Shown: positions 1,129-40,986 of the stretch, one piece after another
How positions within the stretch are numbered: the first letter of the stretch is position 1
How the letters are laid out: the number at the start of each line of letters is the position of its first letter
Assembly: GCF_002854065.1 (NCBI RefSeq)
Contig: NZ_CP024147.1
DNA: 64,000 nt
Strand: one strand, 5' to 3'
From: Escherichia coli
GTDB lineage: Bacteria > Pseudomonadota > Gammaproteobacteria > Enterobacterales > Enterobacteriaceae
Notes under the pieces: model-generated
Seen by the model: only the letters and a program-made list of their open reading frames with translations
What the model was told of the DNA's origin: nothing
Database searches by the model: none
Position numbers and translations under genes: made by a program

Positions 1129-2238
1129 TCACTTGGCTGCCGTGGATGAACCGTCGGCGTGCCACTGGAAGACACCAAAATCAAATCCCTTAAGATCGCC
1201 TTTTTCATCCCAGTTCAGCGGCCCAATCACGGTGTTTGCACCGTTAGCTTTTAAATCTTTCACCAGCGCCAGCGGCTCATCGCTGCCGGTACGTTCAAGG
1301 GCAGTTGCCAGAGATTGCACCGCCGCGTAGGTGATCCAGACATAAGGCCCGGACGGATCTTTCTTGTCTGCTTTCAGCGCATCAACGATGCCCTGGTTTG
1401 CCGGATCCTGGTCATAGCGTTTTGGCATAGTGACCAACATGCCTTCGGCGGCATCACCGGCAATGTTCGACAACGACGCATTACCCACACCTTCCGGCCC
1501 CATAAACTGGGTTTTCAGGCCAACGGAACGGGCCTGGCGCAGCATCTGCCCCATTTCCGGGTAGTAACCGCCGTAGTAAACGAAGTCGATGTTTTCTTTT
1601 TTCAGGCGGGCGATCAGCGCGGAGAAATCTTTCTCCCCGGCGGTAATACCGTCGAAGAAGACGACGTTGGCGTTAGCCGCTTTCAGCCCGTTCTGCACCG
1701 AACGCGCCAGCCCTTCGCCATACTGTTGTTTGTCGTGAATGATGGCGATGCGCTGGGGCTTCACCGTCTCAAGAATGTATTTTGCCGCCGTTGGTCCCTG
1801 GGAAGAGTCCAGCCCGGCAGTACGCATAATGTGTTGATAACCGCGTTGGGTCAGCTCCGGGTTGGTCGCTCCCGGCGAGATCATCAGAATACCTTCGTCT
1901 TCATAGATATCTGACGCAGGCTGGGTAGAAGAAGAACACAGATGACCAATAACGTATTTAATGCCGTCATTAACGATTTTGTTGGCGACCGCAACGGCTT
2001 GTTTCGGGTCGCAGGCGTCGTCATATTCCACGCCAACCAGCTTATCGCCTTTAATTCCCCCTTTGGCATTAATGTCTTTAATCGCCTGACGCGCGCCGTT
2101 AAATTCCATATCGCCCCACTGGGCAATCGGGCCGGACATCGCGCCGACAACGGCAACTTTAATATCGTCGGCTAAAGCGGTGTGTGAAATTGCCAGTGCA
2201 ATCATCCCTGCGATGATAGTTTTCGCATTCCGTTTCAT
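1129..2238 (-). CDS. livK: Leucine-specific periplasmic binding protein LivK
   Basis: ORF 1129..2292 trimmed to internal start [23 protein letters not shown] (signal peptide), giving 369 aa; paralog of the livJ product downstream. Confidence 0.9.
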
Positions 2239-2661
2239 AGTCAAAAATCCCCATTCGTGATGTTGTGTTGCTTTGTTTTTATGTGTTAACAAATCAGACT
2301 GTTCTTTTTTTATACTGCACTGTTTTTGCCTGTCTGATTAAGGGTTTAGCGCAGTATTTTGTGATAATAGCGATTAAAGTCCCTATTTTTCAGTCGATTA
2401 AGAACAGATAATATTCTGAATTTATTGATAGATAAACAGAAAAAAGCGCCTTTGTCAGCATAAAATAACGGCACAAAGGGCGGAATAATTCACTACCATT
2501 CAGGGGATTATGCTGGGTATTTTTCATTCTCTAATGTTTTAACTTTGTAATTATTGCTGTTAAAAAATTAATCACCTGCCAAAAGAAATAAAAAAGAGAA
2601 AGCCTCCGATTAAATTATTTCGCTACACTGGTTCCACTTTTGTGATTTACACGGGTTCCCC

Positions 2662-3045
2662 ATGAAGCTGACCATCATTCGATTAGAAAACTTTAGCGAC
2701 CAGGACCGGATTGACCTGCAAAAGATCTGGCCGGAGTATTCCCCTTCCTCTTTACAGGTTGACGATAACCACCGTATCTACGCCGCGCGTTTTAACGAGC
2801 GCCTGCTCGCGGCCGTGCGGGTAACCTTAAGCTGCACGGAGGGCGCACTGGATTCCCTGCGCGTGCGGGAAGTCACCCGCCGTCGCGGTGTGGGGCAATA
2901 TCTGCTGGAAGAGGTTTTGCGTGATAATGCCAGCGTTTCATCCTGGTGGATGGCGGATGCAGGCGTGGAAGATCGCGGCGTGATGGCGGCGTTTATGCAG
3001 GCACTGGGATTTACGGCACAACAGGGCGGCTGGGAAAAGCGTTAA
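2662..3045 (+). CDS. panZ: PanD maturation factor PanZ (YhhK), GNAT-fold
   Basis: 127-aa ORF MKLTIIRLENFSDQDRIDLQKIWPEY...; sits between livK and livJ as in K-12. Confidence 0.9.
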   Translation: MKLTIIRLENFSDQDRIDLQKIWPEYSPSSLQVDDNHRIYAARFNERLLAAVRVTLSCTEGALDSLRVREVTRRRGVGQYLLEEVLRDNASVSSWWMADAGVEDRGVMAAFMQALGFTAQQGGWEKR

Positions 3046-3084
3046 TCGTCAAGTTTGATTTCAAAAGTGATGACCAACGAGAAA

Positions 3085-3192
<108 letters not shown>

Positions 3193-3244
3193 AACGTACT
3201 CGATATTAGCAATTTGGCGGCAACCCAAAGTTGCCGATTAATGA

Positions 3245-4348
3245 TTACTTCGCATCGGTCGCCGTGCCGTTGGCGTGCCAGTCAAACACACCGAACTCAA
3301 AGCCTTTCAGATCACCTTTCTCATCCCACGTCAGCGGACCCATCACGGTATCAACCGAGTTCGCTTTCAGGTATTTGGCGATCTCAGCCGGATCGTCAGA
3401 CTGATTCAGGCCCGCCTGCAAAGATTGCAGCGCGGCGTAGGTGGTCCAGACGAATGCGCCGCTTGGGTCCTGTTTTTTCGCTTTGATCGCATCAACAATG
3501 GGTTTGTTCGCCGGAACCTGATCGTAGTTCTTCGGCTTGGTCACCAGCAGCCCTTCCGCTGATTCGCCCGCAATGTTAGACAGCGAAACGTTAGCCACGC
3601 CTTCCGGCCCCATAAACTGAGTTTTCAGCCCTGCCGCGCGTGCCTGACGCAGGATTTGCCCCATTTCCGGGTGATAACCGCCGTAGTAAACGAAGTCGAT
3701 ATTCTCTTTTTTCAGACGCGCCACCAGCGTTGAGAAATCTTTTTCCCCGGCGGTGATACCATCAAAGAACACCACGTTAGCATTGCCTTTCTTCAGGCCG
3801 TCCTGCACCGCTCGCGCCAGACCTTCGCCGTATTGCTGTTTGTCGTGAACGATAGCAATACGCTGCGGTTTCACTTTCTCAAGAATATATTTCGCCGCCG
3901 TCGGCCCCTGGTCGGAGTCCAGGCCGGTAGTGCGCAGGATCAGCTGATAGCCACGGGCGGTCAGCTCCGGCGCGGTTGCCGCTGGGGTGATCATTAAAAT
4001 GCCTTCGTCTTCGTAGATGTCAGACGCAGGCTGCGTTGATGAAGAACAGAGGTGACCAATCACATATTTAATGCCGTCGTTAACGACTTTGTTCGCCACC
4101 GCAACCGCCTGTTTCGGGTCACAGGCATCGTCATATTTTACGATTTGCAGTTTGTTGCCTTTAATGCCGCCTTTAGCGTTGATATCCGCAACCGCCTGCT
4201 CTGCGCCGGTAAACTCCTGGTCACCGTACTGCGCAACCGGACCGGACATTGCGCCCACGACCGCGACTTTAATATCTTCTGCCAGAGCCATATTACTGAA
4301 TGCCAGCGCGATACATCCTGCCAGTAACGCTTTACCCTTTATGTTCAT
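3245..4348 (-). CDS. livJ: Leu/Ile/Val periplasmic binding protein LivJ
   Basis: ORF 3245..4405 trimmed to [23 protein letters not shown] (signal peptide), 367 aa. Confidence 0.9.
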
Positions 4349-4561
4349 CCTGAGAATCCCCATTCTTCTGGTTATTACGTGTGTTGTGATGTTGTTGTTC
4401 AGCACTTTATTTCGTTTTATGCATGACTACCCGTGCTTTAGCAGCATACTCTGCTAAAACATACCCGATTTTTATGATATTGGAATAGCTATTTTGACAG
4501 TTTATTAACAATCTGCGTGGGGATTGGCGTTTTGCCGGAGGGGAAATTGATTATTGTAGAG

Positions 4562-4602
4562 GCCCAAAAAACAAAAACCCCGGACTCGCATCCAGGGTTC
4601 TC
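4562..4602 (-). terminator. Probable intrinsic terminator of rpoH
   Basis: On the minus strand a GC stem (cccugg...ccgggg, one G-U pair) is followed by a U-run, immediately after the rpoH stop. Confidence 0.5.
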
Positions 4603-4618
4603 TGCTTAATAGCGGAAA

Positions 4619-5473
4619 TTACGCTTCTATAGCAGCGCGCAGTTTTTTCATCGCGTTCTTTTCCAGCTGGCGTACACGTTCAGCGGAAACACCGTAACGG
4701 TCAGCCAGTTCCTGCAACGTGGACTTGTTGTCTTCGTCCAGCCAGCGCGCGCGGATGATGTCCTGGCTGCGTTCGTCCAGACCCTGCATCGCGTCGGTCA
4801 GACGGTTTGCTGCCTGCTCTTCCCAGTTATCATCTTCAATGCCGTCGGCAAAGTTAGATGATTTATCCTGCAGATAGAGCACCGGTGCCATCGGTTGGCT
4901 GTCGGAATCGTCGTCGGAAGACAGGTCAAAGGTCATGTCCTGTGCCGCCATACGTGATTCCATCTCACGTACGTCTTTGCTGGTTACGCCCAGTTCACGG
5001 GCCACCATTTCGACTTCATCCTGGTTAAACCAGCCCAAACGCTGCTTGGTTTTACGCAGGTTGAAGAACAGTTTGCGCTGCGCTTTGGTGGTCGCAACTT
5101 TGACGATACGCCAGTTACGCAGAACGTATTCGTGGATCTCTGCTTTGATCCAGTGAACGGCGAAGGAGACCAGGCGCACACCCACTTCCGGGTTAAAACG
5201 GCGCACTGCTTTCATCAGGCCGATGTTACCTTCCTGAATCAAATCCGCCTGTGGCAGGCCATAGCCCGCATAATTACGAGCAATATGAACAACAAACCGC
5301 AGGTGAGACAGGATCAGCGTTTTAGCTGCTTCCAGATCGCCATGGTAATGCAGCTTTTCAGCCAGCGCCCGCTCCTCGTCAGCCGACAACATCGGCCACG
5401 CGTTAGCTGCCCGGATGTAGGAATCCAGGTTGCCAACTGGGGCTAAAGCTAAACTTTGCATTTTGTCAGTCAT
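4619..5473 (-). CDS. rpoH: RNA polymerase sigma-32 (heat-shock sigma factor)
   Basis: 284-aa [54 protein letters not shown]...; recognised RpoH. Confidence 0.97.
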
Positions 5474-5560
5474 TCAAATCCTCTCAATCGATATCTTCTG
5501 GCGCTTCAGTGGTAGCAACAACTGTGCCAGAGCTTAAGAGCAACGAGGTTATCATTCACT

Positions 5561-5596
5561 GTTTTATCAGACCGTGATTTTATCCACAAGTTCAAT
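5561..5596 (-). promoter_or_regulatory. rpoH sigma-E dependent promoter (P3)
   Basis: Minus strand reads tGAACTTgtggataaaatcacggTCTGAtaaaac: sigma-E -35 GAACTT and -10 TCTGA with ~16-nt spacer, ~100 nt upstream of rpoH ATG. Confidence 0.6.
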
Positions 5597-5717
5597 GCAA
5601 GCTTGTGAATAAATTACGCACAAAATGTGACATAGAGATGAAATACCGGGAAGAGACAACGGGGTCTCTTTCCCTACTACGGAACCCATTGCAGGGAAAG
5701 AGTATAACACGCTTTTA

Positions 5718-6776
5718 TTATTCAGGCGTAAAGTGGCGTAAATGTTGTACCGTGGCAAGCCACGCTGCCACCCAGCCAATCATCGAGCATACCAGCAGCA
5801 ATAGCAGGCATTCATCGAACGATAAGCCATTGATATCAAACTTCGTTCCGAAAACCTGTGCCACTTCCGCAACCGCCGATGACAATCGCAGTACCAGAAT
5901 TTCTGACAAAATTAGTGACAACAATGCGCCAGAAAACCCCAGCAATGCGCCACCGTACAGGAACGGGCGCAGGATGAAACCATCCGTTGCACCAATCAGT
6001 TTCTGCACGTTAATGGAGTCACGACGAGCAAAGATACTCAGGCGTACACTGTTACCGATGACGAGGAACACTGCCGCCACCATCAACACGCCGATCATCG
6101 CCGAAACGCGCCCGACCAGCCCGGTCAACGCCGCCAGACGAGCAAACCAGCTGTCATCCATCCGCACTTCGTCAATGCCGTTAATCTGCGTGATACGATC
6201 GCGCAGCGTATTCAGTGATTCCGTCCCCTGAAAATCGAGTTTCGGGATCACCACCGCCACTGCCGGAAGCGGGTTTTCTTCCAGCATATCCAGCGCACCA
6301 CCAAAACCAGACCAGTTACGGAACTCACCCAGTGCGTCTTCACGAGAAAGATAATTCACTTTCTCCACGCCTTGCTCGGCCTGCAACTGTGCCACCACGC
6401 CCGCAGCAGCGTCATCGTCCAGCGTTTTTTGCAGATAAACAGTGATTTGCGGTGACGGATAATATTGCGTCGCCGCCTGGTTAACGTTTTTGTACACCAT
6501 ATAACAGACGCTGGGCAGCGTCAGGGAGATGGCGATAACCATCACCGTTAAAAACGTGGCGAACGGTTTGCTTTTCAGATCCTGCAATGCGCCGTGGAAG
6601 GCATAGCGCACCTGTTCGTTGAAAACGTTGGTTTTGCGATTTACCGGTTTTGGCGAGGATTTCGCGCGTTTCGGTGCGTTACGACCGCCGTCGCCTGAGC
6701 CGCCGACCGATTTACGGAAGCGATCAAGACGCCCGCCAAACTGCCGAATATGATTGATTGCATCGCGCTTATTCAT
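5718..6776 (-). CDS. ftsX: Cell division ABC-type permease-like protein FtsX
   Basis: ORF 5718..6803 trimmed to [15 protein letters not shown]... (352 aa); overlaps ftsE stop; ftsYEX operon order. Confidence 0.9.
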
Positions 6777-7437
6777 GGCCCACGCCTCCATGCAAGTGAC
6801 CATCGCTCAGGGTGAGCATGCGATAGGAACGCCGCGAAATCAGGTTGATGTCGTGCGTTGCCATCAATACGGTTACCCCAACGCGGTTAAACTCTTCAAA
6901 CAGACGTAGAATCCCTTCCGACAACGCGTCGTCCAGGTTACCAGTCGGTTCGTCCGCCAGCAGTACCGCGGGCTTATTCACCACCGCGCGGGCAATGCCA
7001 ACACGCTGTTGTTCACCGCCGGAAAGCTGAATAGGAAAGTTCTTCGCTTTGTCCAGTAGCCCGACTTTATCCAGCGCCGCCGACACCCGGCGACGAATAT
7101 CGTCACCGCTGGCACCGGCGATAATCAGCGGGATCGCCACGTTATCGTAGACAGTACGGTCCATCAGTAGATGGTGATCCTGGAAAATCATGCCAATCTG
7201 GCGGCGCAGAAACGGAACTTCACGGTTTTTCAGACGCGTGATGTCATGGCCGCTAAACCAGATTTTCCCGGCGCTGGGCCGCTCAATCCCACAGATCAGC
7301 TTCAGGAGGGTACTTTTCCCTGCGCCGGAATGACCGGTCAGAAACGCCATCTCACCCGGCTGCATATGGAACGTAACGCCCTGCAGCGCCTGTCTCCCAC
7401 CGAGATAAGCCTTGCTGACATGTTCAAAGCGAATCAT
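6769..7437 (-). CDS. ftsE: Cell division ATP-binding protein FtsE
   Basis: 222 aa, Walker [13 protein letters not shown] signature LSGGEQQR, Walker [12 protein letters not shown]. Confidence 0.95.
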
Positions 7438-7439
7438 TG

Positions 7440-8936
7440 TTAATCCTCTCGGGCAAAAAGTGCCTCTATAAAGTCGTCCGCCTTAAACGGACGCAAATCC
7501 TCAATACGTTCGCCGACACCAATGTAGCGGATAGGGATACCAAACTGGTCAGCCACCGAGAAAATTACCCCGCCTTTCGCCGTGCCGTCCAGTTTCGTTA
7601 GCGTGATGCCGGTTAAGCCAACAGCTTCGTGGAACAGTTTGGCCTGGCTTACCGCGTTCTGCCCGGTGCTGGCATCAATAGTCAGCATAACTTCATGCGG
7701 CGCTTCAACGTCGAGTTTCTTCATCACGCGGACGATTTTCTTCAACTCTTCCATCAGATGCGATTTGTTCTGCAGACGTCCGGCGGTATCGGCAATCAGG
7801 ACGTCGATATTACGCGCTTTAGCTGCCTGAATGGCGTCGAAGATAACAGAGGCGGAATCCGCACCGGTATGCTGGGCAATCACCGGAATATTGTTGCGCT
7901 GACCCCAGACCTGAAGCTGTTCAACCGCTGCTGCACGGAAAGTATCGCCCGCCGCCAGCATCACCGATTTACCCTGCTGCTCAAACTGACGCGCCAGCTT
8001 ACCAATCGTCGTGGTTTTACCCACACCGTTGACGCCCACCATCAGGATCACGAACGGCGTTTTACCTTCAACATTCAGCGGCTCATCGACTTTCGCCAGA
8101 ATCTCGCCCATCTCTTCTTTCAGCAGGCCATAGAGCGCCTCGGCATCACGAAGCTGCTTGCGGGATGCGCCTTCCGTCAGATTGGTGATAATTTTACGTG
8201 TGGTTTCCACGCCCACATCGGCGATCAACAGCTGTTCTTCCAGCTCTTCAAAAAGATCATCGTCGATTTTTTTACCGCGGAACAGGCTGATAAATCCGGA
8301 ACCGAGGTTTTCTTTGGTTTTTAACAGGCTGCGTTTCAGGCGCGCGAAGAAACCTTCTTTGGTCGGCTTTTCCTGCTCCTGAGCAATTTCTCCCACCGGC
8401 TGCTCTTCTTCTGCCGGAGGAACCACCATCACCGCCTCTTCTGCCGCTTCGGCAGCCAGCGCCTGTGTTTCCAGCTCTTCGTCGGTGATTTCTTCTTTAG
8501 CCGCTTCTTCTTCCGCCGCTTCGACAATCTCTACGGTTTCCGCTTCAGCCTGCCACTCTTTTGGCGAAACCTCTTCGGCGTTGACGTCTTCCGGCAACGG
8601 CAGTTCTTCACGTTCGATAGCCACTGGCTCCGGCGTTTCTTCTACGACCGGTTCCGGCTGTGCAACGACTTCCGCTTCAGGCTGCGCTTTTTCACTTTCA
8701 GCTACCTGTTCAGTGACTTCCACAACTTCGGCAGCAAAAGTTTCCGCCTCGGCTTCAGTATGCGCCTGCGGCTGCTCTTCAACGGCTTGTTCAGAAGCCT
8801 TCACAGGCTCTTGCGCCTGAACGATTTCTTCTACAACCGGTTGTTCATTCTGAACTTCTGTCTCTTTTTCCGGGGTCTGCTCTTTTTGACCAAAGCCCAG
8901 CCAGGAAAAAAAGCCACGTTTTTTTTCTTTCGCCAT
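7440..8936 (-). CDS. ftsY: SRP receptor FtsY
   Basis: 498-aa ORF with acidic E/A/Q-rich N-terminal domain and C-terminal SRP-GTPase NG domain (GVNGVGKTTTIGKLA, DTAGR). Confidence 0.95.
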   Translation of the reverse strand: MAKEKKRGFFSWLGFGQKEQTPEKETEVQNEQPVVEEIVQAQEPVKASEQAVEEQPQAHTEAEAETFAAEVVEVTEQVAESEKAQPEAEVVAQPEPVVEETPEPVAIEREELPLPEDVNAEEVSPKEWQAEAETVEIVEAAEEEAAKEEITDEELETQALAAEAAEEAVMVVPPAEEEQPVGEIAQEQEKPTKEGFFARLKRSLLKTKENLGSGFISLFRGKKIDDDLFEELEEQLLIADVGVETTRKIITNLTEGASRKQLRDAEALYGLLKEEMGEILAKVDEPLNVEGKTPFVILMVGVNGVGKTTTIGKLARQFEQQGKSVMLAAGDTFRAAAVEQLQVWGQRNNIPVIAQHTGADSASVIFDAIQAAKARNIDVLIADTAGRLQNKSHLMEELKKIVRVMKKLDVEAPHEVMLTIDASTGQNAVSQAKLFHEAVGLTGITLTKLDGTAKGGVIFSVADQFGIPIRYIGVGERIEDLRPFKADDFIEALFARED

Positions 8937-9085
8937 TTGCGACTACACTCCTCGCTGTTGCTTCATGGCACAGCGTTAACGCTATGTACATAGCAGCTAA
9001 AAAAATGATGAAATAGTCTATCACTTAACTTAATTCACATCACCGCCTGCAAGTATGTGTTATCTGGCGGATTGAGCAATTTATC

Positions 9086-9682
9086 ATGAAAAAACCGAAT
9101 CATTCCGGCAGCGGCCAAATCCGCATTATTGGCGGGCAGTGGCGAGGCCGTAAACTCCCGGTTCCTGATAGCCCAGGTCTGCGCCCCACCACCGACCGCG
9201 TACGCGAAACGTTATTTAACTGGCTGGCTCCGGTCATTGTTGACGCCCAATGTCTGGATTGCTTCGCCGGAAGCGGCGCACTGGGGCTGGAAGCGTTATC
9301 ACGCTACGCTGCGGGGGCCACGTTGATTGAGATGGATCGTGCAGTTTCTCAGCAGTTAATTAAGAACCTGGCGACACTAAAAGCAGGCAATGCACGCGTG
9401 GTGAACAGCAACGCAATGTCATTCCTGGCGCAAAAAGGCACACCGCATAATATCGTGTTTGTCGATCCACCGTTCCGCCGTGGCTTGTTAGAAGAGACGA
9501 TAAATTTACTGGAAGATAACGGCTGGCTGGCTGATGAAGCCCTGATTTATGTCGAAAGCGAAGTCGAAAACGGTCTGCCCACTGTTCCGGCAAACTGGTC
9601 ATTACATCGGGAAAAAGTGGCGGGTCAGGTGGCTTATCGGCTGTATCAACGCGAAGCACAAGGAGAAAGTGATGCTGATTAA
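9086..9682 (+). CDS. rsmD: 16S rRNA m2G966 methyltransferase RsmD
   Basis: 198 aa, MKKPNHSGSGQIRIIGGQWRGRKL..., SAM-MTase motifs (LDCFAGSGALGLEA, VFVDPPF). Confidence 0.93.
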   Translation: MKKPNHSGSGQIRIIGGQWRGRKLPVPDSPGLRPTTDRVRETLFNWLAPVIVDAQCLDCFAGSGALGLEALSRYAAGATLIEMDRAVSQQLIKNLATLKAGNARVVNSNAMSFLAQKGTPHNIVFVDPPFRRGLLEETINLLEDNGWLADEALIYVESEVENGLPTVPANWSLHREKVAGQVAYRLYQREAQGESDAD

Positions 9683-9941
9683 TATTGGACGTTTGTTAAT
9701 GCTCTGCGTTTGGGGATTTTTAATCCTCAACCTGGTGCATCCCTTCCCGCGTCCGCTGAATATTTTCGTTAACGTGGCGCTGATTTTTACCGTGCTGATG
9801 CATGGTATGCAGCTGGCGCTGTTGAAATCGACCTTGCCGAAAGATGGCCCGCAGATGACCACCGCCGAAAAGGTGCGGATTTTCCTTTTCGGCGTGTTTG
9901 AACTGCTGGTCTGGCAGAAGAAATTTAAAGTTAAAAAATAA
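9672..9941 (+). CDS. yhhL: Small inner-membrane protein YhhL (DUF1145)
   Basis: ORF 9549..9941 trimmed to MLINIGRLLMLCVWGFLILNL... (89 aa); start overlaps rsmD 3' end by ~11 nt. Confidence 0.8.
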   Translation: MLINIGRLLMLCVWGFLILNLVHPFPRPLNIFVNVALIFTVLMHGMQLALLKSTLPKDGPQMTTAEKVRIFLFGVFELLVWQKKFKVKK

Positions 9942-9943
9942 CC

Positions 9944-10303
9944 TTATTGTTTGCCTACAAAGCTGACAAAGCGCGTTCCTTTATAGCTCAGCGTACCTTT
10001 ATCGCCCACTGTCAGGGCGTGGTACTGCTGGGCGTCGAGGCGAAACGTTTGCTCCATTCCTCCGCTTTGCGGTTTGAAGCTTGCCTCATAGCGTATACTG
10101 GTGCCTGCCGGAGTCACTTCTTGCTGGCGCGAACGGCGATCGTTAATCGGTTTTTCCCGCTTGTTGCTCACCACCACCAGCTTTTGCTGGAGCGGAGCCA
10201 TATCATTATCAGCTTTTTCCCGTCGCTGTTGCATAAAACGAAACGATGCGGCGACGACAATTAAGCCAATGATAACAATAAAGAAAAGAGGTGGTTTGCT
10301 CAT
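9944..10303 (-). CDS. yhhM: Uncharacterised membrane-anchored protein YhhM
   Basis: 119 aa, N-terminal TM helix MSKPPLFFIVIIGLIVVAASF; convergent with yhhL with only ~2 bp between stops. Confidence 0.85.
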   Translation of the reverse strand: MSKPPLFFIVIIGLIVVAASFRFMQQRREKADNDMAPLQQKLVVVSNKREKPINDRRSRQQEVTPAGTSIRYEASFKPQSGGMEQTFRLDAQQYHALTVGDKGTLSYKGTRFVSFVGKQ

Positions 10304-10443
10304 CTTTATCCCTCATCGGAAAATGCGGAATTAAGCATACCCTGCCAGTTATGGTGTTGTCATCCGTCCACCCTCGCCACTAAACTGGAAGCAAGACCGT
10401 AGGCATTCCGCCTACGAAAAAATAACGAATTCAAGGAACTAAG

Positions 10444-11070
10444 ATGCTTTGGTCGTTTATCGCTGTCTGTCTTTCCGCATGGCTATCTGTGGATGCATCG
10501 TATCGTGGGCCAACCTGGCAACGCTGGGTGTTTAAACCGTTAACCCTTCTTCTCCTGCTGTTACTGGCCTGGCAAGCGCCGATGTTCGACGCCATTAGCT
10601 ATCTGGTGCTGGCAGGGCTGTGCGCCTCACTGCTGGGCGATGCGCTAACCCTGTTGCCACGTCAACGTCTGATGTACGCCATCGGCGCGTTTTTCCTCTC
10701 GCACCTGCTGTACACCATCTATTTCGCCAGTCAGATGACGCTCTCTTTCTTCTGGCCTCTGCCACTGGTGTTGCTGGTTCTGGGCGCGCTGTTACTGGCG
10801 ATTATCTGGACGCGGCTGGAAGAGTATCGTTGGCCCATCTGCACGTTTATCGGCATGACGCTGGTGATGGTGTGGCTGGCAGGTGAACTGTGGTTCTTCC
10901 GTCCGACCGCTCCGGCACTCTCTGCGTTTGTCGGCGCTTCGTTGCTGTTTATCAGTAACTTTGTCTGGCTGGGTAGCCACTATCGCCGACGCTTCCGTGC
11001 GGATAACGCGATTGCTGCGGCCTGCTACTTTGCCGGTCACTTCCTCATCGTCCGCTCGCTGTATCTCTGA
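10444..11070 (+). CDS. yhhN: Inner membrane protein YhhN (TMEM86 / lysoplasmalogenase family)
   Basis: 208-aa polytopic membrane ORF; position between yhhM and zntA. Confidence 0.88.
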
Positions 11071-11075
11071 TAAAA

Positions 11076-11109
11076 CTTGACTCTGGAGTCGACTCCAGAG
11101 TGTATCCTT
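11076..11109 (+). promoter_or_regulatory. zntA promoter with ZntR (MerR-family) operator
   Basis: TTGACT -35, then perfect 22-bp palindrome actctggagtcgactccagagt inside a ~20-bp spacer, then TATCCT -10; ~35 nt upstream of zntA ATG. Confidence 0.8.
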
Positions 11110-11143
11110 CGGTTAATGAGAAAAAACTTAACCGGAGGATGCC

Positions 11144-13342
11144 ATGTCGACTCCTGACAATCACGGCAAGAAAGCCCCTCAATTTGCTGCGTTCAAACCG
11201 CTAACCACGGTACAGAACGCCAACGACTGTTGCTGCGACGGCGCATGTTCCAGCACGCCAACGCTCTCTGAAAACGTCTCCGGCACCCGCTATAGCTGGA
11301 AAGTCAGCGGCATGGACTGCGCCGCCTGTGCGCGCAAGGTAGAAAATGCCGTGCGCCAGCTTGCAGGCGTGAATCAGGTGCAGGTACTGTTCGCCACCGA
11401 AAAACTGGTGGTCGATGCCGACAATGACATCCGTGCACAAGTTGAATCTGCGGTGCAAAAAGCGGGCTATTCCCTGCGCGATGAACAGTCCGCCGAAGAA
11501 CCGCAAGCATCACGCCTGAAAGAGAATTTGTCGCTGATTACGCTAATCGTGATGATGGTAATCAGCTGGGGTCTGGAGCAGTTCAATCATCCGTTTGGGC
11601 AACTGGCGTTTATCGCGACCACGCTGGTTGGGCTGTACCCGATTGCTCGTCAGGCATTACGGCTGATCAAATCAGGCAGTTACTTCGCCATTGAAACGTT
11701 AATGAGCGTAGCTGCTATTGGTGCGCTGTTTATTGGCGCAACGGCTGAAGCTGCGATGGTGTTGCTGCTGTTTTTGATTGGTGAACGACTGGAAGGCTGG
11801 GCCGCCAGCCGCGCGCGTCAGGGCGTTAGCGCGTTAATGGCGCTGAAACCAGAAACCGCCACGCGCCTGCGTAACGGTGAGCGGGAAGAGGTGGCGATTA
11901 ACAGCCTGCGCCCTGGCGATGTGATTGAAGTCGCCGCAGGTGGACGTTTGCCTGCCGACGGTAAACTGCTCTCACCGTTTGCCAGTTTTGATGAAAGCGC
12001 CCTGACCGGCGAATCCATTCCGGTGGAGCGCGCAACGGGCGATAAAGTCCCTGCTGGTGCCACCAGCGTAGACCGTCTGGTGACGTTGGAAGTATTGTCA
12101 GAACCGGGAGCCAGCGCCATTGACCGGATTCTGAAACTGATCGAAGAAGCCGAAGAGCGTCGCGCTCCCATTGAGCGGTTTATCGACCGTTTCAGCCGTA
12201 TTTACACGCCAGCGATTATGGCCGTCGCCCTGCTGGTAACGCTGGTGCCGCCGCTGCTGTTTGCCGCCAGCTGGCAAGAGTGGATTTATAAAGGCCTGAC
12301 GCTGCTGCTGATTGGCTGCCCATGTGCGTTAGTTATCTCCACGCCCGCGGCGATTACCTCCGGGCTGGCAGCAGCGGCACGTCGTGGGGCGTTAATTAAA
12401 GGCGGTGCGGCGCTGGAGCAGCTAGGTCGTGTTACCCAGGTGGCGTTTGATAAAACCGGTACGCTGACCGTCGGTAAACCGCGCGTTACCGCGATTCATC
12501 CGGCAACGGGTATTAGTGAATCTGAACTGCTGACACTGGCGGCGGCGGTCGAGCAAGGCGCGACGCATCCACTGGCGCAGGCCATCGTGCGCGAAGCACA
12601 GGTTGCTGCACTCGCCATTCCCGCCGCCGAATCACAGCGGGCGCTGGTCGGGTCTGGCATTGAAGCGCAGGTTAACGGTGAGCGCGTATTGATTTGCGCT
12701 GCCGGGAAACATCCCGCTGATGCATTTGCTGGTTTAATTAACGAACTGGAAAGCGCCGGGCAAACGGTAGTGCTGGTAGTACGTAACGATGACGTGCTTG
12801 GTGTCATTGCGTTACAGGATACCCTGCGCGCCGATGCTGCAACTGCCATCAGTGAACTGAACGCGCTGGGCGTCAAAGGGGTGATCCTCACCGGCGATAA
12901 TCCACGCGCAGCGGCGGCAATTGCCGGGGAGCTGGGGCTGGAGTTTAAAGCGGGCCTGTTGCCGGAAGATAAAGTCAAAGCGGTGACCGAGCTGAATCAA
13001 CATGCGCCGCTGGCGATGGTCGGTGACGGTATTAACGACGCGCCAGCGATGAAAGCTGCCGCCATCGGGATTGCTATGGGTAGCGGCACAGACGTGGCGC
13101 TGGAAACCGCCGACGCAGCATTAACCCATAACCACCTGCGCGGTCTGGTGCAAATGATTGAACTGGCACGTGCAACTCACGCCAATATCCGCCAGAACAT
13201 CACTATTGCGCTGGGGCTGAAAGGGATCTTCCTCGTCACCACGCTGTTAGGAATGACCGGACTATGGCTGGCGGTGCTGGCAGATACGGGTGCGACGGTG
13301 CTGGTGACAGCGAATGCGTTAAGATTGTTGCGCAGGAGATAA
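11144..13342 (+). CDS. zntA: Zn(II)/Cd(II)/Pb(II)-translocating P1B-type ATPase ZntA
   Basis: 732 aa; N-terminal metal-binding GMDCAACARKVE, CPC transmembrane motif, DKTGTLT phosphorylation site, GDGINDAP hinge. Confidence 0.97.
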   Translation: MSTPDNHGKKAPQFAAFKPLTTVQNANDCCCDGACSSTPTLSENVSGTRYSWKVSGMDCAACARKVENAVRQLAGVNQVQVLFATEKLVVDADNDIRAQVESAVQKAGYSLRDEQSAEEPQASRLKENLSLITLIVMMVISWGLEQFNHPFGQLAFIATTLVGLYPIARQALRLIKSGSYFAIETLMSVAAIGALFIGATAEAAMVLLLFLIGERLEGWAASRARQGVSALMALKPETATRLRNGEREEVAINSLRPGDVIEVAAGGRLPADGKLLSPFASFDESALTGESIPVERATGDKVPAGATSVDRLVTLEVLSEPGASAIDRILKLIEEAEERRAPIERFIDRFSRIYTPAIMAVALLVTLVPPLLFAASWQEWIYKGLTLLLIGCPCALVISTPAAITSGLAAAARRGALIKGGAALEQLGRVTQVAFDKTGTLTVGKPRVTAIHPATGISESELLTLAAAVEQGATHPLAQAIVREAQVAALAIPAAESQRALVGSGIEAQVNGERVLICAAGKHPADAFAGLINELESAGQTVVLVVRNDDVLGVIALQDTLRADAATAISELNALGVKGVILTGDNPRAAAAIAGELGLEFKAGLLPEDKVKAVTELNQHAPLAMVGDGINDAPAMKAAAIGIAMGSGTDVALETADAALTHNHLRGLVQMIELARATHANIRQNITIALGLKGIFLVTTLLGMTGLWLAVLADTGATVLVTANALRLLRRR

Positions 13343-13347
13343 GGCAA

Positions 13348-13425
13348 ACCGATCGCAACATTGAGCGCGATCGGTCCCCTCGCTCCTCTGGGGAGAGGGT
13401 TAGGGTGAGGGGAAAAGGCGGCATC
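13348..13425. terminator. Stem-loop plus G-rich palindromic element between convergent zntA and tusA
   Basis: 8-bp stem ccgatcgc/gcgatcgg directly after zntA stop, followed by cccctcgctcctctggggagagggttagggtgagggg. Confidence 0.4.
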
Positions 13426-13443
13426 GAAGCCAATCTGCCCCCA

Positions 13444-13689
13444 TCAACCACCTTTACGAATCAAATAACGATAAGGCAGTCCATCCGTCTCTTTGGCAAC
13501 CAGTTCGTGTTCCATAAAGGTACAAAACCCAGGGATATCGCGGGTCGTCGCCGGATCGTCAGCAATAATCAGCAACGTTTCACCTGGCTGCATATTGCGC
13601 ACTGTTTTGCGCACCATCATTACTGGTTCCGGGCAGCGCAGGCCAAGTGCGTCGAGTGTGTGGTCAGGGCTGGAAAAGAGATCGGTCAT
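13444..13689 (-). CDS. tusA: Sulfur carrier protein TusA
   Basis: 81 aa, [33 protein letters not shown]..., conserved CPxP motif. Confidence 0.95.
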
Positions 13690-13867
13690 TTTCTTCTCAT
13701 CACATAAAAAAACGGCGCTAGTTTACGCCCTGTGAGTCCGTAAGCAAACCAGGTTAACGATTGCGTAAAAATTAACCATTGCATTGTCAACGTAAAGCAG
13801 TATCATGCGGCGGCTCGAAAAAAGGGTAAGCACGTTATTATGTTAAGGTAACAGACGTGTCGTACGT

Positions 13868-13904
13868 ATTGGGTTCCCTCACCCCAATGGTTAATCAAAA
13901 AGGT
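13868..13904 (+). ncRNA. Candidate preQ1-I riboswitch aptamer in the yhhQ 5' leader
   Basis: UUGGG-UUCCCUCAC-CCCAA-UGGUUAAUCAAAAAGG: 5-bp P1 stem, C immediately 5' of the P1 3' strand, A-rich tail ending in AAGG that doubles as the yhhQ SD; near-collinear with the Thermoanaerobacter preQ1-I aptamer as I recall it (CUGGGUCGCAGUAACCCCAGUUAACAAAACAAGG). Confidence 0.45.
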
Positions 13905-13909
13905 ACAAT

Positions 13910-14575
13910 ATGAACGTTTTCTCGCAAACTCAACGCTATAAAGCGTTGTTCTGGTTATCGTTATTTCATCTGCTGGTGATCACCTCCAGTAACTATCTGG
14001 TTCAGCTTCCCGTCTCCATTTTTGGTTTCCATACCACCTGGGGCGCGTTTAGCTTTCCGTTTATCTTTCTCGCTACCGACCTGACCGTACGTATTTTTGG
14101 CGCACCGCTGGCCCGTCGTATCATCTTTGCGGTGATGATCCCGGCATTGCTGATCTCCTACGTCATCTCGTCGCTATTCTATATGGGTTCATGGCAGGGA
14201 TTCGGCGCACTCGCCCACTTCAACCTGTTTGTCGCCCGTATCGCCACCGCCAGTTTCATGGCCTACGCGCTGGGACAGATCCTCGACGTGCACGTTTTTA
14301 ACCGCCTGCGTCAGAGTCGCCGCTGGTGGCTGGCACCGACAGCGTCCACACTGTTCGGTAACGTCAGCGACACGCTGGCCTTTTTCTTCATTGCCTTCTG
14401 GCGTAGCCCGGATGCCTTTATGGCTGAACACTGGATGGAAATCGCGCTGGTCGATTACTGTTTCAAAGTGTTAATCAGTATCGTTTTCTTCCTGCCAATG
14501 TATGGCGTATTACTCAATATGCTGTTGAAAAGACTGGCAGATAAATCCGAAATCAACGCTTTGCAGGCGAGTTAA
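13910..14575 (+). CDS. yhhQ: Queuosine-precursor (preQ0/preQ1) transporter YhhQ, COG1738
   Basis: 221-aa membrane ORF MNVFSQTQRYKALFWLSLFHLLVITSSNYLVQLPV... Confidence 0.95.
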   Translation: MNVFSQTQRYKALFWLSLFHLLVITSSNYLVQLPVSIFGFHTTWGAFSFPFIFLATDLTVRIFGAPLARRIIFAVMIPALLISYVISSLFYMGSWQGFGALAHFNLFVARIATASFMAYALGQILDVHVFNRLRQSRRWWLAPTASTLFGNVSDTLAFFFIAFWRSPDAFMAEHWMEIALVDYCFKVLISIVFFLPMYGVLLNMLLKRLADKSEINALQAS

Positions 14576-36234: not shown

Positions 36235-39038
<2,804 letters not shown>

Positions 39039-39067
39039 GTTATTTCTGAAACGAGGAAAGAAAAGAT

Positions 39068-39104
39068 ATTAACTGAACTTAATTTATAAAATTAAGTTCA
39101 GTTG
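39068..39104. terminator. Perfect 13-bp inverted repeat between convergent nikR and hicB-like gene
   Basis: aactgaacttaat-N7-attaagttcagtt; T-rich flank on the minus-strand side. Confidence 0.5.
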
Positions 39105-39157
39105 CATAGATAGATCCTGTAAAGGCAGATATTCTGCGTAATGTACGCCGCTAAAAT

Positions 39158-39517
39158 TTATAAATGATTCAAACGCTCATTCAGTGTTTCAATAATATAG
39201 GTATTAACAGAGACTTGTTGCTGCGCAGCCGCATTATTAAGGCGTTCACTCAGCGATTCTGGATAGCGTAACGTAAAGGTCTTAATCTTTTCTGTACGCG
39301 CATACGGCTCAATACCCGCAGCTTTACAATCCTCAAGATACTCTCGCAGAGAAAGTTCCCCTTCTTTTTGCAGCCCCTGAATGCTGTCAGAGACAAAATC
39401 ACAATAACCTGACAAGCCCAGGAATTTGCCACGAAATGCATTCAGTTCTGGCACGTAAGTGATAACAGCAGGTTGCCCGGCAATCTCCATAGAGTTTGGC
39501 GTCTTCAGTTTGATCAT
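39158..39517 (-). CDS. HicB-family antitoxin (HicB-like N-domain + C-terminal ribbon-helix-helix)
   Basis: 119 aa; central FRGKFLGLSGYCDFVSDSIQGL...EPYARTEKIKTFTLRYPESL and C-terminal LSERLNNAAAQQQVSVNTYIIETLNERL fit the HicB pattern; overlaps toxin gene by 4 nt. Confidence 0.65.
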   Translation of the reverse strand: MIKLKTPNSMEIAGQPAVITYVPELNAFRGKFLGLSGYCDFVSDSIQGLQKEGELSLREYLEDCKAAGIEPYARTEKIKTFTLRYPESLSERLNNAAAQQQVSVNTYIIETLNERLNHL

Positions 39518-39789
39518 GGTTTTACCCCTATACTTAGTAACCAGTCACGCACGCTTTCTACAGCGCCTTTGTCGGTATCTGGCGACGGATGAGGCCGATG
39601 GAAACACGCAACGCTCATATTTAGTATGAACTTACAACGCGAACCTCTTCCTTCCTTAATTTCTCCGCCTAATGCTTTAACCAGTGACTCTATATCAGAC
39701 CACTTGATCCCTTGAGGAACAGGAGATTTAAATATTTGATCCAATGTATTTTTTTGTTTCTTCCGTAAAGCCTGTACCTTGGTTCTCAT
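39514..39789 (-). CDS. HicA-family mRNA-interferase toxin (YcfA-like)
   Basis: 91 aa; C-terminal ...GSRCKFILNMSVACFHRPHP...VESVRDWLLSIGV resembles HicA (KGSHxxF...P.HP...I...LG); N-terminal extension means the real start may be internal. Confidence 0.6.
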   Translation of the reverse strand: MRTKVQALRKKQKNTLDQIFKSPVPQGIKWSDIESLVKALGGEIKEGRGSRCKFILNMSVACFHRPHPSPDTDKGAVESVRDWLLSIGVKP

Positions 39790-39797
39790 GGCATGTC

Positions 39798-39851
39798 CTT
39801 ATGACTTCACTTTATGACATCAATAGTATGACATCACAGTATGAAGTCAAG
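39798..39851 (-). promoter_or_regulatory. Putative hicAB promoter/operator: four tandem ~13-bp repeats
   Basis: tatgacttca / tatgacatca / tatgacatca / tatgaagtca at ~13-bp periodicity in the 72-bp gap between yhhJ stop and hicA start. Confidence 0.4.
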
Positions 39852-39861
39852 TTTCCCTTCC

Positions 39862-40986
39862 TCACGCCATTGTCCCAATCGTCTTCCTGAATCGCAGCAG
39901 TGCGATGGTGAAAAACGCGCCGCCAATTGCCATCAGCGTCAGGAACTGCGGCCAGACGATTTCGAATCCGGCACCCCGGTAGAGAATGGCCTGCGCGAGG
40001 CTAACAAAGTGTGTCGTCGGCATGGTCAGCATAATGTCCTGCACCATCTGCGGCATACTTTCGCGCGGCGTGGAGCCACCGGAAAGCATTTGCAGCGGCA
40101 GCAGCACCAGAATCACCAGCAGCCCCAGTTGCGGCATTGAACGCGCTATCGTCCCCATAAAAATGCCGATTGACGTGGTGGCAAACAGACTGAGCGCCAC
40201 GCCCAGCATAAACAGCGGGATCGAGCCTTCAATCGGTACGCCCAGCACGCCTTTCACCATCAGCACCAGCGATAATCCCGATACCACCAGCACCACCAGC
40301 CCCATCGACCAGACCTTAGCCATCATGATCTCAAACGGCGTTATCGGCATCACCAGTAAATGTTCCACCGTGCCGTGTTCACGCTCGCGGATCAGCGCCG
40401 ATCCGGTCAATACAATCGCCAGCATGGTAATGTTGTTGATGATTGCCATCACCCCGCCAAACCACGCGGGATCAAGGTTCGGGTTAAAGCGCATCCGGGT
40501 TTCCAGCGATACCAACGGTTCGCTGTTATCGCGGTAGCGCGCGACAAAGCTGTTCACTTCACCGTTGATAATATTCTGGATATACCCGTTGCCGGTAAAT
40601 GCCTGGCTCATGCGCGTGGCATCGACGTTCACCTGAATATCTGGCTGGCGTCCAGCGAGGACATCACGCTGAAAATTAGGCGGAATATTTATCGCGAAGG
40701 TATAGCGTCCGGCGTCCAGTCCGGCATCCATCTCATCGGCGGTGATCATCTCCGGTGGCAAAAACCACGGGCGATAGAAGCTGTTAACGATCCGATTCGA
40801 TAACTGCGATTGATCCATATCGGCAATGGCGATCGGTGCCAGGTTCAACGATCCTGGCGTAACGGTCGCTGACGAATACACCGACACCGTAAACGAGAAG
40901 ACAATCAATGTCAGCATCGCTTTATCACCGAGTAGACTGCGCAACTCTTTGATACCCAGATTAAAAATATTGCGTAAATGGCGCAT
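39862..40986 (-). CDS. yhhJ: ABC-2 type transporter permease YhhJ
   Basis: ORF 39862..41070 trimmed to [30 protein letters not shown]...; start overlaps rbbA stop. Confidence 0.85.
   Translation of the reverse strand: MRHLRNIFNLGIKELRSLLGDKAMLTLIVFSFTVSVYSSATVTPGSLNLAPIAIADMDQSQLSNRIVNSFYRPWFLPPEMITADEMDAGLDAGRYTFAINIPPNFQRDVLAGRQPDIQVNVDATRMSQAFTGNGYIQNIINGEVNSFVARYRDNSEPLVSLETRMRFNPNLDPAWFGGVMAIINNITMLAIVLTGSALIREREHGTVEHLLVMPITPFEIMMAKVWSMGLVVLVVSGLSLVLMVKGVLGVPIEGSIPLFMLGVALSLFATTSIGIFMGTIARSMPQLGLLVILVLLPLQMLSGGSTPRESMPQMVQDIMLTMPTTHFVSLAQAILYRGAGFEIVWPQFLTLMAIGGAFFTIALLRFRKTIGTMA

Follow-up and report, generated by a model that had tools for sequence, protein, structure and literature searches.

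The HicA toxins that have been characterised share a catalytic histidine at the start of strand beta2, within a G-x-H motif, that is needed for toxicity or RNase activity; it is His24 in Burkholderia pseudomallei and Neisseria gonorrhoeae, His28 in Yersinia pestis, His36 in Streptococcus pneumoniae and His23 in Escherichia coli (PMC11594946; PMC12297915). The beta1-beta2 turn carries a conserved glycine, which is Gly22 in the B. pseudomallei toxin (BpsHicA) and in gonococcal HicA (PMC12297915; PMC11594946). [quoted passage not shown] Here we describe a pair of this class in a 64,000-nucleotide stretch of E. coli DNA (contig NZ_CP024147.1 of assembly GCF_002854065.1; hereafter the window), where hicA (39514..39789, minus strand, 91 amino acids) and hicB (39158..39517, minus strand, 119 amino acids) lie between nikR and yhhJ.

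The pair is not new, as automatic annotation already labels it: RefSeq, through the Prokaryotic Genome Annotation Pipeline (PGAP), lists it as a HicA-family toxin and a HicB-family antitoxin in thousands of genomes. Its toxin, however, belongs to a family of long HicA proteins in which arginine occupies the position of the catalytic histidine. We consider it likely, though well short of certain, that the locus is a classical autoregulated toxin-antitoxin (TA) system in which the toxin uses a non-canonical centre to attack RNA.

The long HicA toxin and its HicB partner

A first-pass annotation of the window, made from the sequence alone, had called the two open reading frames (ORFs) HicA-like and HicB-like and named a search of Pfam models as a check. 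Both families came back above their gathering cut-offs: HicA_toxin (PF07927) matches residues 30-80 of the 91-residue protein at 37.7 bits (cut-off 27), and HicB (PF05534) matches residues 60-112 of the 119-residue protein at 56.8 bits (cut-off 21). Homologues of the 91-residue HicA likewise carry precomputed PF07927 matches. Among phage protein families, PHROGs assigns HicA to phrog_8887 ('toxin', 92.5 bits) and HicB to phrog_9151 ('HicB-like antitoxin'), both classed as morons. Each protein has hundreds of homologues, and the pairing is conserved. The long HicA family comprises proteins of 84-91 amino acids, with 998 representatives at 50% identity when collected at E<=1e-10 and 2420 at E<=1e-3. 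Comparison with Citrobacter indicates purifying selection on both genes, with ratios of nonsynonymous to synonymous differences per site (pN/pS) of 0.10 for hicA and 0.15 for hicB; these are raw ratios, because synonymous sites are saturated and a Jukes-Cantor dS was not computable. Database records of long HicA proteins are sometimes named 'hexulose-6-phosphate synthase' (e.g. NZ_CP045209.1) and some HicB relatives 'DNA repair protein', names that are evidently propagated misannotations.

The AlphaFold2 model of HicA has a predicted local distance difference test (pLDDT) score of 93.4. It begins with an extra N-terminal helix (residues 10-19), followed by the arrangement alpha(30-39)-beta(43-46)-beta(51-56)-beta(59-64)-alpha(74-86). 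[quoted passage not shown] In Foldseek searches the predicted structure resembles solved HicA proteins, and dsRBD-like matches are also listed. The description of the ORF as HicA-like is thus borne out for sequence and fold, but it does not extend to the known catalytic residue, because the canonical GSH is GSR in this protein.

In the model, G49 and S50 make up the beta1-beta2 turn and R51 begins beta2, the site of the catalytic histidine in characterised HicAs. A HMMER alignment of the family profile to the solved HicA of PDB 9svk sets 'eGSRvkv' over 'rGSHyqw', with R51 opposite the catalytic histidine, and an hhalign comparison with a profile of canonical GSH HicAs (probability 81%, E 1.2e-5, 53 columns) again places R51 opposite the histidine. 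Both alignments match G49 to the glycine of the canonical GSH, and the conserved glycine of the HicA family is therefore present.

We counted residue conservation over 148 diverse representatives of the long HicA family. Arginine occupies the R51 position in 144 of them and histidine in one. The signature of the window protein is G49-S50-R51 together with H64-R65-P66-H67. G49 and S50 are conserved in 146 and 145 representatives, H64, P66 and H67 in 144 each, and R65 in 129; W30 is conserved in 140 and K74 in 115. Since R51 is kept family-wide, the substitution is a family character under selection and not a product of decay. The first-pass annotation had singled out an FHRPHP motif in the toxin; the motif is present and belongs to the family signature, although that signature goes with the loss of the canonical catalytic histidine. 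H67 aligns with the histidine of a 'P-H' pair near the catalytic histidine of canonical HicAs, which is dispensable in gonococcal HicA (PMC12297915). H64, which corresponds to no residue of canonical HicAs, stands at the end of beta3 in the model, where the hairpin register would make it the cross-strand partner of R51. A non-toxic HicA of Erwinia amylovora (PMC6521040) was considered as evidence on long HicA and set aside as uninformative, since it comes from a 59/136-residue pair of another subfamily.

The HicB model (pLDDT 86.7) contains strands at residues 9-12, 15-22, 27-32 and 40-43 and a helix at 46-67, then two further helices at 87-99 and 104-118. Its best Foldseek matches are HicB chains, namely 6g26_B (probability 1.00, E 0.016), 6u0i_B, 4p7d_B and 4p78_A (probability 1.0, template-modelling (TM) score 0.59), with modest E-values. 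The N-terminal part is modelled as a partial RNase-H-like fold and is predicted to bind HicA. For the tail there are sub-threshold Pfam matches to the RHH families Arc, CopG and FitA, matches of the HicB family profile to Arc and AmrZ, and Foldseek alignments with RHH domains (TM 0.70 for Arc, 1par, and up to 0.71 among Arc, KacA and AtaR). These results, together with PF05534, agree with the earlier proposal of a HicB-like protein with a C-terminal RHH-like tail. By gene order, overlap and RHH support, the pair in the window is a class 4 hicAB.

Operon layout and putative regulatory elements

The stop codon of hicA and the start codon of hicB overlap by 4 bp as ATGA (39514..39517, minus strand), a signature of translational coupling that is also present in the Citrobacter, Serratia and Azospirillum loci. 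Between the end of nikR at 39038 and the first base of the yhhJ stop codon at 39862 lie 823 bp; the segment that is strain-specific relative to K-12 covers 39045..39863 (819 bp), with BLAST homology breaking at 39044/39045 and 39863/39864. GC content in 200-bp windows is 0.35-0.49 within the segment versus 0.52-0.62 in the flanks, and hicA and hicB have values of 0.43 and 0.44, compared with 0.555 for nikR and 0.545 for yhhJ. We could therefore reproduce the coordinates of the first-pass annotation, which had described an interval of about 0.8 kb, AT-rich relative to its neighbours, holding two overlapping minus-strand ORFs.

The 72-bp spacer between yhhJ and hicA holds a promoter and a Shine-Dalgarno (SD) sequence. 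A consensus scan identifies a putative sigma-70-like promoter at 39823..39850 on the minus strand (9/12 matches), composed of a -35 element TTGACT (39850-39845), a 16-nt spacer and a -10 element TACTAT (39828-39823); the SD sequence, AAGGA, lies at 39796..39800 on the same strand, 6 nt 5' of the hicA ATG. Four TGAnnTCA boxes at 39802, 39815, 39829 and 39842 (39802..39849, spacing 13/14/13 bp) lie across the -35 and -10 elements, with the outermost two arranged as an inverted repeat. We regard these boxes as a putative HicB operator. The whole window contains 15 TGAnnTCA matches, against 14.3 expected by chance, and because four of the 15 fall within 48 bp, the cluster is not a chance one. Between E. 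coli and Citrobacter, conservation starts exactly at the -35 box and extends to the hicA ATG, the boxes included, while sequences farther upstream are unrelated. In that upstream part, between the yhhJ stop and the -35 box, Citrobacter has a GC-rich palindrome (CCGGCCTGCGGTCGCGAACTGCGCCAGGCCGG; 5877-5925 of the extracted locus) resembling repetitive extragenic palindromic (REP) elements, which is absent from E. coli.

On the downstream side, 55 bp past the hicB stop, a probable hicAB terminator at 39071..39103 (minus strand) combines a perfect 15-bp stem, a 3-nt loop and a U-rich tail, and its hairpin gives an RNA-fold z of -4.16. No Rfam family matches within the segment. As judged from the sequence, promoter, boxes and terminator fit an autoregulated, self-contained operon. 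In such an operon the single promoter would produce a bicistronic mRNA, and translation of hicB would be coupled to that of hicA through the ATGA overlap. A HicB dimer may then bind the four boxes through its RHH tail and repress the operon, as the domain, the repeats and their conservation across genera suggest.

Alleles and states of the nikR-yhhJ junction

Of 5426 complete E. coli genomes, 2073 (~38%) carry the pair on the chromosome, and the junction in which it lies has at least five states. The window represents the compact order nikR-hicBA-yhhJ with hicBA alone, shared by ~1488 of the carrier genomes; its copy is identical over 1.1-1.3 kb to those of strains XJ34, XJ6-3, 100416 and CUWW06. 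In ~585 genomes, O157:H7 and O103 among them, hicBA is accompanied by a 5.85-kb island, and the B2 strain NU14 has this island without hicBA. The rhsB element found in K-12 marks the fourth state (2111 genomes with that junction). In strain 21KM1392 the site is empty, with 8 bp between two convergent stop codons (TTAACCCCGTAATCA; 1739-1748 of the extracted locus) and neither hicBA nor a REP segment, island or rhs element. Literature searches on RhsB and ECOR returned nothing about an empty site, and searches combining the accessions, locus tags and nikR or yhhJ with TA terms returned nothing relevant. A paper on O157:H7 'HicA/HicB' expression (PMC5854682) cites the K-12 system and could not be attributed to the nikR-yhhJ pair.

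The 5.85-kb cassette directly follows nikR and encodes a GntR regulator, a galactitol-type phosphotransferase system (PTS; IIA, IIB and IIC), an FGGY kinase, HPr and a class II aldolase. Its copies in O157:H7 493/89 (3153-9000 of the extracted locus) and NU14 (8091-13998) are 96.6% identical. In O157 the island replaces the window spacer 39037-39146, which contains the probable terminator hairpin, and the BLAST breakpoints delimit a hicBA sub-block common to the window and O157:H7 at 39147-39863. In K-12 the order is nikR-rhsB-yhhH-yrhC-yhhI-yhhJ over ~6.7 kb, with hicAB absent from that position. A REP-like element of ~100 bp with a GATGCGTAG...CTTACGCATC hairpin adjoins the yhhJ stop in both K-12 and NU14, neither of which has hicBA there; it sits downstream of yhhI in K-12 (8580-8681 of the extracted locus) and downstream of the aldolase gene in NU14 (13900-13998). 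Because K-12 and NU14 share this REP segment in the place of hicBA, the polymorphism is modular: the yhhJ side carries either hicBA or the REP segment, and the nikR side independently carries the spacer, the island or rhsB. The first-pass annotation had placed the pair where K-12 carries the rhsB element. The K-12 gene order confirms that element and the junction is indeed variable, but hicAB and rhsB are not simple alternatives, and direct displacement of hicAB by the K-12 rhsB was rejected as too simple given the B2 and O157 states. On the yhhJ side of the junction, we note a start-codon ambiguity in yhhJ itself (39862-41070 in the window), whose ORF, extended to a GTG, has 402 amino acids versus 374 (1125 nt) in RefSeq.

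Citrobacter has the same order, yhhJ-hicA-hicB-nikR, with 85% protein identity (hicAB at 6001-6632 of the extracted locus), an arrangement that speaks for long residence of the module here. Despite identical synteny, the synonymous differences per site (pS) between E. coli and Citrobacter reach 0.84 for hicA and 0.80 for hicB, which are saturated, versus 0.49 for nikR and 0.57 for yhhJ. This excess of synonymous divergence may reflect allele replacement or faster evolution.

Within E. coli, the toxin gene appears to have been repeatedly inactivated at this hotspot while HicB was retained. One lesion is a start-lost mosaic allele in ~790 complete genomes (38% of carriers), in which codon 2 of hicA is TAA and a 14-bp deletion removes one operator unit together with the -10 element; PGAP rescues a 76-residue product of this hicA from an internal CTG. 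This FORC_043-type allele is strongly diverged in the promoter and the 5' half of hicA (~80% identity to the window over 145 bp) but ~100% identical in the 3' half and in hicB (extract 1905-2240), which points to an old recombination event with its breakpoint within hicA. A second allele carries a frameshift within the Ser50 codon of G-S-R (7 complete genomes, and widespread in draft assemblies), and IS66 insertions in hicA are a third type of lesion. All four alleles examined encode a HicB of 100% identity, and one and the same protein, WP_000593555.1, is found in the window, O157, FORC_043 and an IS66-disrupted strain. Toxin lesions alongside an intact HicB are what would be expected if HicA is harmful when unopposed, and the pattern is also consistent with drift toward loss. 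About 62% of carriers match the window sequence across the G-S-R region, and the window allele, which shows no defect in any feature examined and has its promoter, SD, coupling and terminator, is probably functional.

Elsewhere the family is found on mobile elements. In Serratia proteamaculans (CP045913.1) a hicAB pair of the same family, 75% identical, lies in a P2-like prophage (1747-5934 of the extracted locus), between gpA plus a Dam-like methyltransferase gene and ogr/portal/terminase, a slot typical of accessory or defence cargo. A relative in an Azospirillum metagenome-assembled genome stands beside a resolvase gene and a phage portal gene, and further members occur in Burkholderia phage ST79, in ~49 Ralstonia phage records and on 231 plasmid records. 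PLSDB files several complete E. coli chromosomes (4.8-4.9 Mb) as 'plasmids', which inflates plasmid counts for chromosomal genes. Near the E. coli copy there are no mobility genes, and core genes lie on both sides. The family is thus mobile elsewhere and, in E. coli, a resident of the nikR-yhhJ hotspot.

Readings of the locus and relation to known HicAB systems

On the reading that we favour, an autoregulated TA system with an RNA-attacking toxin, the partial RNase-H-like domain of HicB would cap and neutralise HicA, as homologous solved complexes suggest. Free HicA would bind RNA through its dsRBD-like core and cause growth arrest, most likely by cleaving RNA. With R51 at the canonical histidine site, H64 and H67 of the H-R-P-H motif would be the best acid/base candidates.

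A number of observations weigh against this reading. The canonical histidine, which mutagenesis shows to be essential in YpHicA3, BpsHicA, StpHicA (the S. pneumoniae toxin) and gonococcal HicA, is absent from the sequence of the window HicA, and the proposed clustering of R51, H64 and H67 is deduced from strand register in the model. Foldseek E-values of the HicA model against solved HicAs exceed 0.6, a phmmer search of the PDB with the 91-residue protein gives no match at E<=10, the profile match of the HicA family to 9svk is weak (E 0.27), and no NCBIfam model matches either HicA or HicB. Searches of the literature and the PDB turned up neither an experiment on a long HicA nor a solved structure of one. 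The apparently dead toxin gene in 38% of carriers suggests that E. coli may not need the module or may be losing it, and in PADLOC-DB 2.0 no defence-system family matches HicA or HicB at E<=0.01. The arginine at position 51 also speaks for a genuine TA pair with a non-catalytic HicA, which would act stoichiometrically, by binding RNA, the ribosome or some other partner. The dsRBD is primarily an RNA-binding fold, and the conserved N-terminal helix and W30 of long HicA suggest an added interaction surface. We nevertheless regard a non-catalytic toxin as unlikely: the almost invariant H64-R65-P66-H67...D73-K74 beside R51 resembles a catalytic constellation and not a plain binding surface, and there are RNase toxins, RelE among them, that function with no histidine.

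The lesions in hicA, with HicB unchanged among them, raise the alternative that the E. coli locus is a decaying or domesticated remnant, in which the toxin no longer matters and HicB persists as an anti-addiction factor or a repressor acting alone; intact copies, both in E. coli and on mobile elements, would serve phage defence or element stabilisation and not host physiology. The frequent absence of the whole module (the rhsB, B2 and empty-site states) and the relatives in a P2-like prophage moron slot, temperate phages and plasmids point the same way. To us this is a still less probable account than a non-catalytic toxin, given the intact signals of the window allele, the majority of carriers that share its G-S-R region and the purifying selection on hicA; the PADLOC result counts against its defence component as well. 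A further idea, that the AT-rich spacer merely happens to contain two open frames that encode no protein, as their small size and the composition of the segment might suggest, deserves practically no credence: it is refuted by Pfam matches above cut-off, hundreds of paired homologues, purifying selection and confident fold predictions.

As a locus, the pair is ordinary in kind, a further type II TA pair on a chromosome, in a junction known to be variable. Its wider interest lies in the toxin, since every mechanistically probed HicA relies on one histidine, and a large sister group has replaced it and is still under selection and paired with HicB. We tentatively entertain, at somewhat less than an even chance, the idea that long HicA is a mechanistically distinct branch, in which either the centre has been rebuilt, with Arg51 at the site of the canonical histidine and a new His64 on the adjacent strand supplying the catalysis together with His67, or catalysis has been dropped for stoichiometric RNA binding. 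If this is true, long HicA would differ from the HicAs studied in its substrate range and in how HicB neutralises it, and the E. coli nikR-yhhJ copy, which occurs naturally in intact and toxin-dead forms, would be a ready model. The mode of action of long HicA would also test the generality of the accepted HicA mechanism. The natural allelic series at this one hotspot (intact, start-lost, frameshifted, disrupted by an insertion sequence, deleted, or with rhsB or a sugar island in its place) is convenient for asking why chromosomal toxins decay while antitoxins persist.

The closest solved systems are the HicAB of B. pseudomallei (PDB 6G26; HicA NMR structure 4C26) and HicA3B3 of Y. pestis (4P78/4P7D), which are likewise class 4 with hicA followed by hicB. 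They share with the window pair a HicB with a partial RNase-H-like domain and a C-terminal RHH, as well as a HicA with a dsRBD-like core and a glycine in the beta1-beta2 turn, and they give the best structural matches. Identity is only ~16-24% over the core, however, and their HicAs have ~60-66 residues, whereas the window HicA has 91 and a conserved N-terminal helix. Where they have His24 and His28, the window protein has Arg51, together with the additional invariant His64 and H-R-P-H. HicBA of S. pneumoniae (5YRZ; StpHicA with His36) and TTHA1913 of Thermus thermophilus (1WHZ) also contain canonical histidine HicAs, with no GSR or H-R-P-H.

The HicAB system of K-12 (hicA b4532/hicB b1438; PDB 6HPB) belongs to the same superfamily and the same species and is also a toxin-first operon, but it is a class 3 system at another chromosomal locus, with a 58-residue HicA carrying His23 and a HicB with a helix-turn-helix (HTH) domain in place of the RHH. 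A phmmer search with K-12 HicA matched only itself and revealed no detectable link to the window HicA, and hhalign comparisons of our family profiles with the single K-12 HicA and HicB sequences produced a spurious 12-column match and no meaningful alignment. The first-pass annotation was thus right to treat the two pairs as different. The HicAB morons of phages (PHROG 8887/9151; Burkholderia ST79 and Ralstonia Dina) belong to the same long-HicA subfamily at ~50% identity over 92% of the length and also have an adjacent HicB-like antitoxin; they are carried on temperate phages, whereas the E. coli copy resides between core genes.

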